Virus record (IMG/VR): IMGVR_UViG_2695420565_000020
Length of the DNA: 12,644 nt
Source of the DNA: a virus
Taxonomy: Duplodnaviria > Heunggongvirae > Uroviricota > Caudoviricetes
Direction: 5' to 3' (one strand)
The notes under the pieces were generated by a model, which searched no databases, was not told the DNA's origin, and was given only the letters and a program-made list of their open reading frames with translations. Positions 3,780 through 7,156 of the stretch are shown here, one piece after another (position 1 is the stretch's first letter; every line of letters starts with the position of its first letter). The translations under genes were made by a program, and so were the position numbers.

Positions 3780-5468
3780 ATGAGTGGTGAAAAAAAGGCG
3801 AAAGGCTGGCGGTTCTATGGTCTTGTAGGTTTTGGCGCAATAGCACTGCTTTCCGCTGGCGTCTGGGCGTTGCAATATGCTGGCAGTGGGCCAGAAAAAA
3901 CGTTGTCGCCGCTGGTGGTGCACAACAATCTGCAAATCGATCTCAATGAGCCGGACCTCTTTCTCGACAGCGACTCTCTGAGCCAGCTTCCCAAAGATCT
4001 CCTCACCATTCCGTTTCTCCACGATGTTCTGAGCGAAGATTTCGTTTTCTATTATCAGAATCATGCCGATCGTCTGGGCATTGAAGGCAGCATTCGTCGT
4101 ATTGTCTATGAACACGATCTCACGCTGAAAGATAAGCTCTTTTCGTCACTCTTAGATCAGCCCGCGCAGGCAGCGCTGTGGCACGATAAACAAGGCCATC
4201 TTTCACATTATATGGTGCTGATCCAGCGCAGTGGTTTAAGCAAACTGCTGGAGCCATTGTTGTTTGCCGCTACCAGCGACAGCCAGTTAAGCAAAACGGA
4301 AATCAGTAGCATCAAGATAAATAGTGAAACTGTTCCTGTTTATCAGTTGCGCTATAACGGCAATAACGCCCTGATGTTCGCGACTTATCAGGACAAGATG
4401 CTGGTGTTTTCCAGCACGGATATGTTGTTTAAAGATGATCAGCAGGATACCGAAGCCACGGCGATCGCAGGTGATTTGTTGAGCGGCAAAAAACGCTGGC
4501 AAGCAAGCTTTGGCCTGGAAGAGCGTGCTGCTGAAAAAACGCCAGTACGCCAGCGCATCGTGGTCAGCGCCAGGTTGCTGGGTTTTGGCTACCAGCGGTT
4601 AATGCCTTCTTTTGCTGGCGTACGCTTCGAAATGGGTAACGACGGCTGGCACAGTTTTGTGGCGTTAAATGATGAATCCGCCAGCGTAGATACCAGTTTC
4701 GATTTTACGCCGGTCTGGAACAGTATGCCTGCCGGGGCCAGCTTCTGTGTGGTGGTGCCGTATTCACACGGTATTGCCGAAGAGATGCTTTCGCACATCA
4801 GTCAGGAAAACGACAAGTTGAATGGGGCGTTAGACGGTGCCGCGGGGCTGTGCTGGTATGCAGACTCAAAATTGCAAACCCCGCTGTTTGTCGGTCAGTT
4901 TGATGGCACTGCCGAACAGGCGCAATTGCCAGGGAAACTGTTTACGCAAAATATTGGTGCGCACGAAAGCAAAGCGCCAGAAGGTGTTTTGCCGATAAGC
5001 CAGACTCAGCAGGGCGAAGCGCAAATCTGGCGTCGCGAAGTGAGTTCCCGATACGGTCAGTATCCGAAAGCGCAGGCGGCGCAACCCGATCAATTAATGT
5101 CGGATTATTTTTTCCGCGTGTCGCTGGCGATGCAAAACAAAACGCTGCTTTTCTCCCTCGATGACACGCTGGTTAATAACGCCCTGCAAACACTGAATAA
5201 AAACCGCCCGGCAATGGTGGATGTAATACCCACTGATGGCATCGTTCCGCTCTATATCAATCCACAAGGCGTGGCGAAACTGCTGCGTAACGAAACGTTG
5301 ACCAGTCTGCCGAAGAATCTCGAACCGGTTTTTTATAACGCCGCACAAACTTTATTAATGCCGAAGCTGGACGCTTTATCTCAACAACCGCGTTATGTCA
5401 TGAAGCTGGCCCAGATGGAACCCGGTGCCGCCTGGCAGTGGCTACCCATAACCTGGCAGCCGCTATGA
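3780..5468 (+). CDS. yfaA: YfaA-like protein (562 aa), recalled as DUF2138 family, N-terminal membrane anchor
   Basis: ATG at 3780 gives [35 protein letters not shown] with aagga 7 nt upstream; the ORF-track start at 3732 is TTG. Position directly downstream of gyrA matches my recollection of the K-12 order gyrA-yfaA-yfaT. Confidence 0.85.
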
Positions 5469-6091
5469 GGCACGGGCTGCTGGCGCTGATTTGCTGGCTG
5501 TGTTGTGTTGTTGCCCATAGCGAAATGCTGAATGTCGAACAATCCGGGCTGTTTCGCGCCTGGTTTGTACGCATTGCACAAGAACAGCTCCGCCAGGGGC
5601 CAAGTCCACGCTGGTATCAGCAGGATTGTGCGGGCCTGGTGCGATTTGCGGCGAACGAGACGCTGAAAGTTCACGATAGTAAATGGCTAAAAAGTAACGG
5701 TTTCTCTAGCCAGTATTTGCCGCCAGAGATGACGCTAACACCTGGACAGCGTCAACTGGCGCAAAACTGGAATCAGGGGAACGGGAAAACCGGCCCCTAC
5801 GTGACCGCGATTAATTTGATTCAGTACAACAGCCAGTTTATTGGCCAGGACATAAACCAGGCGCTGCCTGGCGATATGATTTTTTTCGATCAGGGCGATG
5901 CCCAGCACTTAATGGTCTGGATGGGGCGTTACGTCATCTACCACACCGGAAGCGCCACGAAAACTGACAACGGAATGCGCGCAGTCAGTCTGCAACAACT
6001 TATGACATGGAAGTTGTATATTAAAAATTTCATTAATTATCAATATGTTAATGTGCGCCGGTCATTATTAATCAAAATAAAACCATTATGA
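5465..6091 (+). CDS. yfaT: YfaT-like protein (208 aa), recalled as DUF1175 family, predicted secreted; 3' end lies in prophage attL
   Basis: ATG at 5465 overlaps the yfaA stop (ATGA at 5465-5468); N-terminus [19 protein letters not shown] looks like a signal peptide. The ORF-track start at 5438 is GTG. The last ~25 codons run through AT-rich phage-like sequence and the stop (6089-6091) overlaps the int stop. Confidence 0.75.
5995..6085. other. attL region (core plus P-prime arm with arm-type Int-binding repeats)
   Basis: The AT-rich segment 6001-6085 ends at the int stop; ggtcattattaatcaaaataaaa (6060-6082) resembles lambda P-prime arm sites (ggtcactatcagtcaaaataaaa) and ttatcaat (6047-6054) is shared. 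Exact core coordinates cannot be fixed without the empty-site or attR sequence. Confidence 0.5.
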
Positions 6092-7156
6092 TATTTCAAT
6101 TTTGTCCCACTCCCGCCCGCGACTGTCCCTGTAACGCGCCGCCATTGAATCTGATTTATGCCCGAGAAGACGTTGAGCAAACTTATCGCCAATCTGATTC
6201 CGGTATAGCCTCGCCGACAGGCTGCGCAGTTCATGGAATGTTGGCGGGTCTCCATCAAATGAGAGTCCAGATGCATTTCTCGCCTTTGTAAAATACTTAG
6301 ATACTGTTTTCGGGGAAAGCGGTTCGTGATGCGTTGATGCAATTATTGTTTCACTGCCGCTGGCCTCCCTGCATTTCTGTAGTGTATCAGCCAATGAGAT
6401 ATTGAGCGCGTCAATCGTTAGCGTCAGCGGAATGGCGAGCTTAGCCCCTGTTTTACCCTGCTCAATGTGAAGATGGTTGTCGTTTATGTCTGACCATTTC
6501 ATTCTGCATAAATCGCCTACTCTCTGCCCTGTAACGACAGCCAAATCCATTGCCAGCCTCAGCCAGATTGGGAGCGGTTCGGCTGCATGGTAAATCGCGA
6601 CATATTCATTAGCTGTCAGTCTTGAACGCCTTACTTCTGATTTTGCTGTGCGGGTTGCTGTTACCGGATTCGTAGCCACATGCCCCTCGGCTATTGCCTC
6701 ACGAAAAACGTCAACAAGGGTTGACCTGATTAATTTTGCGGAAGCCGCTTTACCTTCTGCTACGTAGGTGTTTAGCATTGCTGCCACCTCTTTCGTTGAT
6801 ATGTCAGCGAGCGGTTTGTCCGGCAATTTTCTTCGGATTGCCCTGATTTTGCTGGCGTAGTCGAGTAGAGTTTTCGGCCTGATACCCCTCTCGCTGAGGA
6901 TTGTTTCATATCGGTCAAGCCACGCATGAAGAGTGATTGCGTCAGCGCCTTTAATTCTGTCTATCAGTGACTCACGCCTGTTCCCGGATAGCAACTCAAT
7001 ATTGGCCTGTATTGCTTCAGTGATTGCTATCCTCCTGTCTCGGCCTAATCCGAACTCTTTACCCGTCCTTGGGTCCCTGTAGCAGTAATATCCATTGTTT
7101 CTTATATAAAGGTTAGGGGGTAAATCCCGGCGCTCATGACTTCGCCTTCTTCCCAT
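6086..7156 (-). CDS. int: Tyrosine site-specific integrase, lambda Int family (356 aa)
   Basis: N-terminus [55 protein letters not shown] matches lambda Int; catalytic motifs present ([27 protein letters not shown], Tyr in ARYRD). Central region diverges from lambda Int by recall. Confidence 0.95.

Follow-up and report, generated by a model that had tools for sequence, protein, structure and literature searches.

Probable site-specific integration of an HK022-type lambdoid prophage within yfaT, between yfaA-yfaT and the downstream alpha-2-macroglobulin genes of Escherichia coli

For phage HK022, whose attB adjoins torS and carries the 7-bp overlap AGGTGAA, a 21-bp BOB' logic of the attachment site has been described (PMC4846993). 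Phages whose core is AGGTGAA are found adjacent to torS. With regard to the host genes, the closest described system is the Pseudomonas aeruginosa operon magABCDEF, which encodes a type II bacterial alpha-2-macroglobulin. Its Mag proteins seem to require joint expression from a single operon, and deletion of magC had little effect on the level of MagD (PMC5764988); the operon has also been reported to protect against T6SS effectors that target peptidoglycan (PMC12663445). DUF1175, the family of MagC and of its E. coli homologue YfaT, is described as NlpC/P60-like but inactive, and as binding peptidoglycan. In E. coli, yfaT is listed among the protein-coding genes, otherwise part of the core genome, that are disrupted by prophages (Bobay, Rocha, Touchon 2013, PMC3603311). 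Around its listing of yfaT, that paper reports neither an att core nor an integrase type, nor what the insertion means for the yfaS operon; these details come from the present analysis, and literature searches on yfaS together with prophage, and on yfaT alone, returned nothing relevant beyond it.

The window analysed here is a stretch of 12,644 nucleotides (IMG/VR record IMGVR_UViG_2695420565_000020), in which ubiG, gyrA, yfaA and a hybrid yfaT, hereafter yfaT', are followed by a convergent phage int, by xis and by lambdoid early genes. Its features are as follows.

3780–5468, plus strand: yfaA (Pfam DUF2138, E 1e-288; annotated as yfaA on near-identical DNA)
5465–6013, plus strand: native part of yfaT, codons 1–183, a DUF1175/MagC homologue (K-12 yfaT is nearly identical up to 6013)
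5996–6013, no strand assigned: attL core (from comparison of attL, attR and K-12, and alignment with the attP cores of HK022 and Stx1a phages)
6014–6091, plus strand: phage-encoded replacement tail of YfaT', 25 codons and a stop, within the attP P' arm (unrelated to K-12)
6086–7156, minus strand: HK022-type tyrosine integrase, convergent with yfaT' (Pfam domains and identity to HK022 Int)
7134–7352, minus strand: xis, excisionase (excisionase annotation on near-identical DNA; int-xis DNA 96% identical to that of HK022)
7458–12644, minus strand: lambdoid early-left region with DUF genes, exo, bet, gam, kil and cIII (annotation of near-identical DNA in NZ_CP074756, and ORFs)

A terminator-like hairpin (3651–3668) lies 3' of gyrA, and the 3' end of yfaA, the first gene of the split operon, overlaps the start of yfaT by ATGA. 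In K-12, gyrA, yfaA, yfaT, yfaS, yfaQ and yfaP are annotated in this order on one strand throughout, with a 67-nt overlap between yfaT and yfaS, and with yfaS and yfaQ abutting; these overlaps and abutments suggest that the five genes from yfaA to yfaP are co-transcribed as one unit. An earlier note on this DNA had given this co-directional order after gyrA, in agreement with the K-12 annotation, and had rightly taken the gene after yfaT for a convergent phage int: the ORF at 6086–7156 on the minus strand carries the lambda-type integrase domains Arm-DNA-bind_1 (E 7e-29), Phage_int_SAM_1 (E 2e-14) and Phage_integrase (E 4e-41) of Pfam, and its stop codon overlaps that of yfaT' by 6 bases.

The host genes resemble the mag operon in several respects. 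The ORF at 5465–6091 on the plus strand matches Pfam DUF1175 (YfaT, E 9e-45), and K-12 YfaT matches the structure of MagC (PDB 7bk8, E 1.8e-103). Moreover, the sizes and order of YfaA, YfaT, YfaS, YfaQ and YfaP parallel those of MagB, MagC, MagD, MagE and MagF, the correspondence of YfaA, YfaS, YfaQ and YfaP resting on size, order and annotation; judged by size and order, YfaA would be the counterpart of MagB. As in a Mag-like operon, genes for a DUF2138 (MagB-like) and a DUF1175 (MagC-like) protein lie upstream of the macroglobulin gene. Unlike magABCDEF, the E. coli cluster comprises five genes, a magA counterpart being absent from it, and in the present case it is split, as relatives show, by a prophage of about 50 kb.

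A base-by-base comparison reveals near identity to K-12 up to position 6013 and no homology from 6014 on, so that the break marks a discrete insertion junction rather than a statistical feature; GC content is about 0.53 before position 6000 and 0.44–0.48 after it. The insertion point falls between codons 183 and 184 of yfaT, not in an intergenic gap, in a stretch of the gene that overlaps the K-12-annotated start of yfaS, whose ATG is situated 8 nt downstream of the crossover; read from this ATG, the yfaS N-terminus resembles a signal peptide. The attL core comprises a putative B half-site CAACTTA (5996–6002), a probable 7-bp overlap TGACATG (6003–6009), positioned by alignment with HK022 and according to the BOB' architecture of PMC4846993, and GAAG (6010–6013). 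The 11 bases 6003–6013 (TGACATGGAAG) are repeated exactly at attR in relatives, and the crossover lies within them. At attL, the 5' part of yfaT is joined to the P' arm, with int beyond it, and at attR in the relatives the P arm is joined to the last 24 yfaT codons, with yfaS-yfaQ-yfaP beyond them; the attR expected for the present prophage would read …CTTCTGACATGGAAG joined to GACACCCGATGG…, then yfaS-yfaQ-yfaP. A tRNA gene was also considered as the integration target, but a tRNA scan found none, and the target is a protein-coding gene.

The integrase is identical to HK022 Int at 348 of 357 positions and to the Int of the Stx1a phage LC744181 at 355 of 357, and phages with the latter Int are inserted next to torS. 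When attP is reconstructed from the P arm of attR and the P' arm of attL, it aligns with the annotated HK022 attP throughout both arms, a tI/sib-like hairpin included, the DNA from 6014 on being homologous to the HK022 P' arm. The core retains the CCTT ... AAGTTG half-sites, and the yfaT-site phage follows the same 21-bp BOB' logic as HK022. By its integrase domains, the short core that is repeated at both prophage ends in relatives and uninterrupted in genomes lacking the element, and the homologous attP arms, the element belongs among the prophages with heterobivalent tyrosine integrases of the lambda/HK022 type, whereas its attB specificity is not that of HK022: the centre of the core is TGACATG instead of AGGTGAA (1 of 7 bases identical), the target lies inside yfaT instead of adjoining torS, and Int ends in ...EIS instead of ...EIDK. 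Between this phage and the torS-side phages, the 7-bp overlap is essentially the only difference in attP. Site choice would obey the HK022 rule, in which Int would bind half-sites resembling the torS-side HK022 attB (ACTTA ... AAGG), while the overlap TGACATG, common to the phage attP and yfaT, would specify the locus. We infer that a lambdoid prophage entered by Int-mediated site-specific recombination between attP and an attB inside yfaT, where the 7-bp overlap would be the place of strand exchange.

Through this insertion, 24 native C-terminal residues of YfaT have been swapped for 25 unrelated ones encoded by the phage P' arm, so that the change in the YfaT C-terminus anticipated beforehand is borne out by comparison with K-12, and the length of the hybrid ORF is almost unchanged (208 vs. 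207 aa). The Pfam DUF1175 match in YfaT' ends at residue 182; it scores 153 bits and spans profile positions 20–202 of 226, as against 196 bits and positions 20–225 for the uninterrupted protein. In uninterrupted YfaT the match runs right through the tail, and the tail agrees with P. aeruginosa MagC at 19 of 23 positions, which argues for constraint on the lost 24 residues. Because these residues belong to the conserved DUF1175/MagC domain, YfaT is probably impaired by the swap. A phage-borne restored yfaT 3' end was suggested by a 9-nt match (AATTTCATT) and an NFI motif, and was rejected as the scores fell within shuffle expectation: local alignment of the phage tail with the native YfaT tail gave no significant similarity relative to shuffles (p 0.24 for DNA, 0.15 for protein). 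The phage sequence does not regenerate the yfaT 3' end, the Pfam match stopping at the junction. As for e14 or phage 21 in icd, and for tRNA-gene sites, insertion took place near the 3' end of the gene and left a similar ORF length; unlike in those cases, the yfaT phage does not restore the target sequence, and the phage-encoded tail of YfaT' varies, drifting among lysogens.

The prophage runs past the end of the window at 12644, and its far end, outside the window, was read in three relatives that share this junction (O111:H- 11128, F2_407_2_2 and strain 20.1). Among 5426 complete E. coli genomes, the closest to the window matches it at 99.6% over positions 1–12537, and none is identical. In the three relatives, attR carries the matching core and the remnant of the yfaT tail, directly followed by the macroglobulin gene yfaS, yfaQ and yfaP, a trio contiguous in K-12 and here annotated as intact in all three lysogens examined. 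The proposal of the earlier note that the prophage separates yfaA-yfaT from these three genes is upheld by these relatives. Across the 5426 genomes, attL was found in 176, attR in 180 and the uninterrupted site in 5199, the yfaT site being occupied in about 3%. Many complete genomes already published contain the insertion, and in these the remnant of yfaT is already marked by annotation pipelines. In the relatives, the prophage measures about 50 kb, its right end holds nleA and nleG, which encode T3SS effectors, and IS insertions and deletion to 14 kb mark its decay.

With regard to expression, yfaS-yfaQ-yfaP would be uncoupled because transcription from the yfaA promoter would now end antisense in int and no longer reach yfaS, and the three genes would lose both the operon promoter and their translational link to yfaT. 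A polar loss of yfaSQP transcription and a collision of read-through with int, both raised in the earlier note, are plausible, the net effect probably being a Mag-like alpha-2-macroglobulin complex that is weakened or silent in this lineage. A scan for terminators in the attL region found no terminator-like site between yfaT' and int, and promoter counts in that region were at or below shuffle expectation, both scans being uninformative.

Alternatively, the insertion may be functionally neutral, YfaT' still working or YfaT being dispensable, with an internal promoter, or one at the phage end, driving yfaSQP, a reading that we regard as possible but doubtful. In its favour, yfaS, yfaQ and yfaP remain intact in the three lysogens while the prophages decay, and the yfaS start codon and a Shine–Dalgarno-like GGAAGGA are preserved at attR. 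The candidate NlpC/P60-type Cys and His of YfaT, read by eye, lie upstream of the break, and the nearly unaltered MagD level after magC deletion points in the same direction. However, the residues lost are Pfam-covered and conserved between E. coli and P. aeruginosa, nleA, the phage gene nearest to yfaS, is oriented away from it, and promoter-like sites upstream of yfaS at attR are not above chance (3 vs. 4.4 expected from shuffles, none convincing, in a scan that is itself uninformative). The intact state of the three genes could in its own right mean continued expression and selection; dN/dS among lysogens has no statistical power, because YfaQ and YfaP each have the same protein accession in all three genomes sampled. 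Damage to YfaT may matter little. K-12 carries yfaS as a pseudogene, which shows that the cluster can be dispensed with under some conditions.

That the window shows the ancestral state, K-12-like genomes having lost the element and the K-12 yfaT 3' end being derived, is logically conceivable, and precise excision would restore an attB, but this reading is highly improbable in view of the 5199 genomes with an uninterrupted site and of the DNA from 6014 on, which corresponds to the HK022 attP arm, int and xis; it is refuted by the native YfaT tail, over the whole of which the DUF1175 profile matches and which is conserved outside E. coli in P. aeruginosa MagC. An assembly chimera or mis-join of unrelated contigs, to which the lack of a complete genome 100% identical to the window might point, can be dismissed as next to impossible given the same junction in 176 independently assembled complete genomes and the reciprocal attR in 180.

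Site-specific integration in yfaT, splitting the operon and presumably uncoupling or weakening yfaSQP, is very likely the correct explanation as a whole. The insertion itself is an already recorded, ordinary lambdoid integration. A bolder reading, which we consider rather unlikely, is that acquisition of the prophage inactivated the Mag-like complex in an O26/O111/O103-type lineage, by truncation of YfaT and orphaning of yfaS-yfaQ-yfaP after the arrival of the nleA/nleG-carrying element; if so, the lineage would have traded a periplasmic defence for new type III effectors. A smaller second reading, put forward just as tentatively, is that of a naturally retargeted HK022, whose target would have shifted from torS to yfaT through a change of the attP 7-bp overlap alone, with no adaptive change in Int.

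As a standard lambdoid integration at a site already catalogued as prophage-disrupted by Bobay et al. (PMC3603311), the insertion as such has little significance. If the split silences yfaSQP, however, the lineage would represent a natural knock-down of a type II alpha-2-macroglobulin complex, usable to probe the role of this complex in E. coli, for instance towards T6SS effectors targeting peptidoglycan. In other respects, the yfaT-site and torS-site phages, with near-identical Int, conserved arms and a different overlap, constitute a clean natural pair for the study of overlap-set site choice by HK022-type integrases.

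In MG1655, gyrA, yfaA, yfaT, yfaS, yfaQ and yfaP are annotated in this order on one strand throughout, as the earlier note had stated for K-12; yfaS is a pseudogene in this strain, and its annotated start lies within yfaT, the two genes sharing 67 nt. In the window, the gene following yfaT is instead a convergent phage int, as that note had read it, and the layout is as follows:

135-857, minus strand: ubiG (ORF list and annotation of near-identical DNA)
1004-3631, plus strand: gyrA (ORF list and annotation of near-identical DNA)
3780-5468, plus strand: yfaA (ORF list, annotation of near-identical DNA; Pfam DUF2138)
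5465-6091, plus strand: DUF1175 gene, the hybrid yfaT' (ORF list; Pfam DUF1175)
6086-7156, minus strand: tyrosine integrase int (ORF list; Pfam arm-binding, SAM-like and catalytic integrase domains)
7134-7352, minus strand: excisionase (ORF list and annotation of near-identical DNA)
up to the window end: lambdoid early genes exo, bet, gam, kil and cIII (annotation of near-identical DNA)

The yfaA/yfaT overlap is ATGA, and yfaT' and int overlap at their stop codons by six bases. A tRNA scan revealed no tRNA gene in the window, and immediately past position 6000 the GC content drops to 0.44-0.48, compared with about 0.53 before it. Base-by-base alignment with K-12 showed that yfaT is almost identical through position 6013 (...CAACTTATGACATGGAAG) and unrelated from 6014 onward (TTGTATATTAAAAA...). 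The prophage had been placed between yfaT and yfaS, which it does separate; however, since the break falls between yfaT codons 183 and 184, the insertion lies inside yfaT and is not intergenic. The YfaT C-terminus is indeed changed, 24 native residues being swapped for 25 of phage origin.

None of 5426 complete E. coli genomes is identical to the window, the best match reaching 99.6% over 1-12537. The first 76 bases (1-76) differ from NZ_CP074756 yet match three other relatives, a dense run of SNPs relative to NZ_CP074756 spans exo and bet (10119-11685), and the last 107 bases (12538-12644) are unrelated to it and matched by none of the top relatives. These differences are phage mosaicism, and the prophage of the source strain is unlike those in the collection. 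As the window stops inside the prophage, the far end was read in three relatives sharing the left junction:

F2_407_2_2 (NZ_CP074756): prophage of about 49.9 kb, its gpU interrupted by IS elements
strain 20.1, closest to the window: prophage of about 50 kb, with ISEc22 inserted in gpJ
O111:H- 11128: prophage of about 14.3 kb, a remnant

The yfaT prophages are defective in all three. At the right end, each carries the type III effector gene nleA and an nleG-family gene (L004 6078-8741; L002 33584-36133; L007 20331-22994), nleA being oriented away from yfaS. These genes are followed in all three by the right junction, attR, where ...CTTCTGACATGGAAG is joined to GACACCCGATGG..., then by a 90-bp remnant of the yfaT tail and by yfaS, yfaQ and yfaP, all annotated without a pseudogene flag. 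In these relatives, the three genes thus lie beyond the far end of the prophage, as expected; the split is confirmed there, and the structural part of the earlier interpretation is supported. Directly after yfaP comes rcsC in lysogen genomes (L004 15592-19492; L007 9580-13480), whereas K-12 has atoC-atoD-atoA-atoE-atoB there (L001 1-5294), missing from that position in the lysogens. Both attL and attR contain the core TGACATGGAAG, a perfect 11-bp repeat that extends to 15 bp if one mismatch is allowed. Among the 5426 genomes, the attL junction is present in 176, the attR junction in 180 and the uninterrupted yfaT-yfaS site in 5199; strain names of matching genomes include O26, O111 and O103, with cattle and human sources.

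With regard to the integration system, DNA from int through xis to the P' arm shares 96% identity with HK022 and 97.9% with a set of Stx1a-converting phages. Int is identical to HK022 Int at 348 of 357 positions, and to that of the Stx1a phage LC744181 at 355 of 357, the last two positions alone differing. Stx1a phages with near-identical Int adjoin torS, where the site is presumably the classical HK022 attB. When attP, rebuilt from the P arm at attR and the P' arm at attL, was aligned with those of HK022 and the Stx1a phage, the arms proved conserved along their full length, tI/sib-like hairpin included. The CCTT...AAGTTG half-sites are shared as well, and only the core centre differs, with TGACATG in the yfaT prophage (ctCCTTc-TGACATG-gAAGTTG) but AGGTGAA in its relatives (atCCTTt-AGGTGAA-tAAGTTG). 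The bacterial sites likewise have similar flanks, CAACTTA-TGACATG-GAAGGAC in yfaT versus GCACTT(A/T)-AGGTGAA-AAAGGTT at torS. Given that HK022 attB consists of a 7-bp overlap between two 7-bp Int-binding half-sites (PMC4846993), that the core centre alone differs and that the flanks are alike, we infer that the overlap selects yfaT, while Int would recognise much the same half-sites as at torS. This looks like a natural retargeting of an HK022-type phage via the overlap sequence alone. In the P arm at attR (L004 ~9130-9175), the int-sense strand contains a hairpin and, after it, a T-run (TTAGCGCAAGG...CTTGCGCTAATTTTTTGTC), an element that HK022 shares and that is similar to lambda tI/sib; as in lambda retroregulation, it is separated from int in the prophage. 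At least five complete genomes carry the yfaT prophage together with a torS-side prophage having an HK022-type int, including 2013C-4187, 2013C-3513, 2013C-3252, 2014C-3051 and TW08637 (NZ_CP074721). In TW08637, the two Ints are identical at 340 of 357 positions and the two Xis at 71 of 72.

The DUF1175 profile reaches position 225/226 in K-12 YfaT (196 bits), but only 202 in the hybrid (153 bits). K-12 YfaT (L001 12340-12960) matches the P. aeruginosa MagC structure (PDB 7bk8) with an E-value of 1.8e-103 and 347 bits over 186 residues, a very high similarity for such distant genera. Horizontal spread of the macroglobulin cluster has been suggested earlier, and this closeness would fit it. The lost segment is identical to MagC at 19 of 23 positions across the two species, and is therefore under constraint. 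Alignment revealed no significant similarity between the phage-encoded and native tails, and the former is not conserved among lysogens: base 6059 gives Arg in the window and Trp in two relatives, and a 1-bp deletion in an A-run (L010 ~220-230) makes the TW08637 tail altogether different and shorter. Owing to the shortened DUF1175 match, the constrained lost segment and the dissimilar, variable new tail, the hybrid is most readily interpreted as a YfaT with a damaged, not a restored, C-terminus. The NlpC/P60 Pfam match of YfaT is below threshold (E 4e-4); a passage of PMC10318531, citing Zouhir et al. 2021, describes DUF1175/MagC as inactive NlpC/P60-like and peptidoglycan-binding.

Because yfaA, yfaT, yfaS, yfaQ and yfaP overlap or directly adjoin one another, they probably form one transcription unit. 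Judged by size and order, they are the putative counterparts of P. aeruginosa magB-magF, and for YfaT and MagC the sequence match agrees with this; the mag operon gives protection against some peptidoglycan-targeting T6SS effectors (PMC12663445). A scan found no terminator-like site between yfaT' and int, and transcripts from the yfaA promoter would run antisense into int after integration. The collision between yfaT' and int transcription proposed in the earlier note probably matters little in a repressed lysogen, because, as is well established for lambda, int is normally silent there. Past attR, yfaS-yfaQ-yfaP lie about 50 kb off, behind the divergently oriented nleA, and no promoter-like site above chance was found by scanning upstream of yfaS. 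The antisense run into int, this separation and the lack of an above-chance promoter make reduced or altered expression of the three genes likely. Alternatively, the split may affect them weakly: they stay intact while the prophages decay in three lysogens, K-12 is viable with a yfaS pseudogene, and magC deletion has little effect on the MagD level in P. aeruginosa (PMC5764988).

The yfaS ATG annotated in K-12 (L001 12403) lies 8 nt past the crossover, and the N-terminus read from there (MDTQRF...GLANA/DDS) looks by eye like a Sec signal peptide. Lysogen annotations use a GTG 90 nt downstream (1504 aa; L004 9333-9425), a start that would leave YfaS without a signal peptide. The K-12 ATG looks like the true start, and both it and a Shine-Dalgarno-like GGAAGGA are kept at attR.

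A prophage in yfaT is a known and ordinary feature: Bobay, Rocha and Touchon (2013, PMC3603311) count yfaT among the conserved genes of E. coli that phage integration disrupts, the prophage is already contained in long-published genomes, O111:H- 11128 for example, and the integration mechanism is textbook lambda/HK022. The proposed functional consequences of the split for yfaT and the operon are plausible. What is added here is the exact crossover and its distance from the yfaS start, the finding that YfaT loses a conserved MagC-like C-terminus, and the recognition of the att system as a variant of that of HK022 in which the overlap differs.
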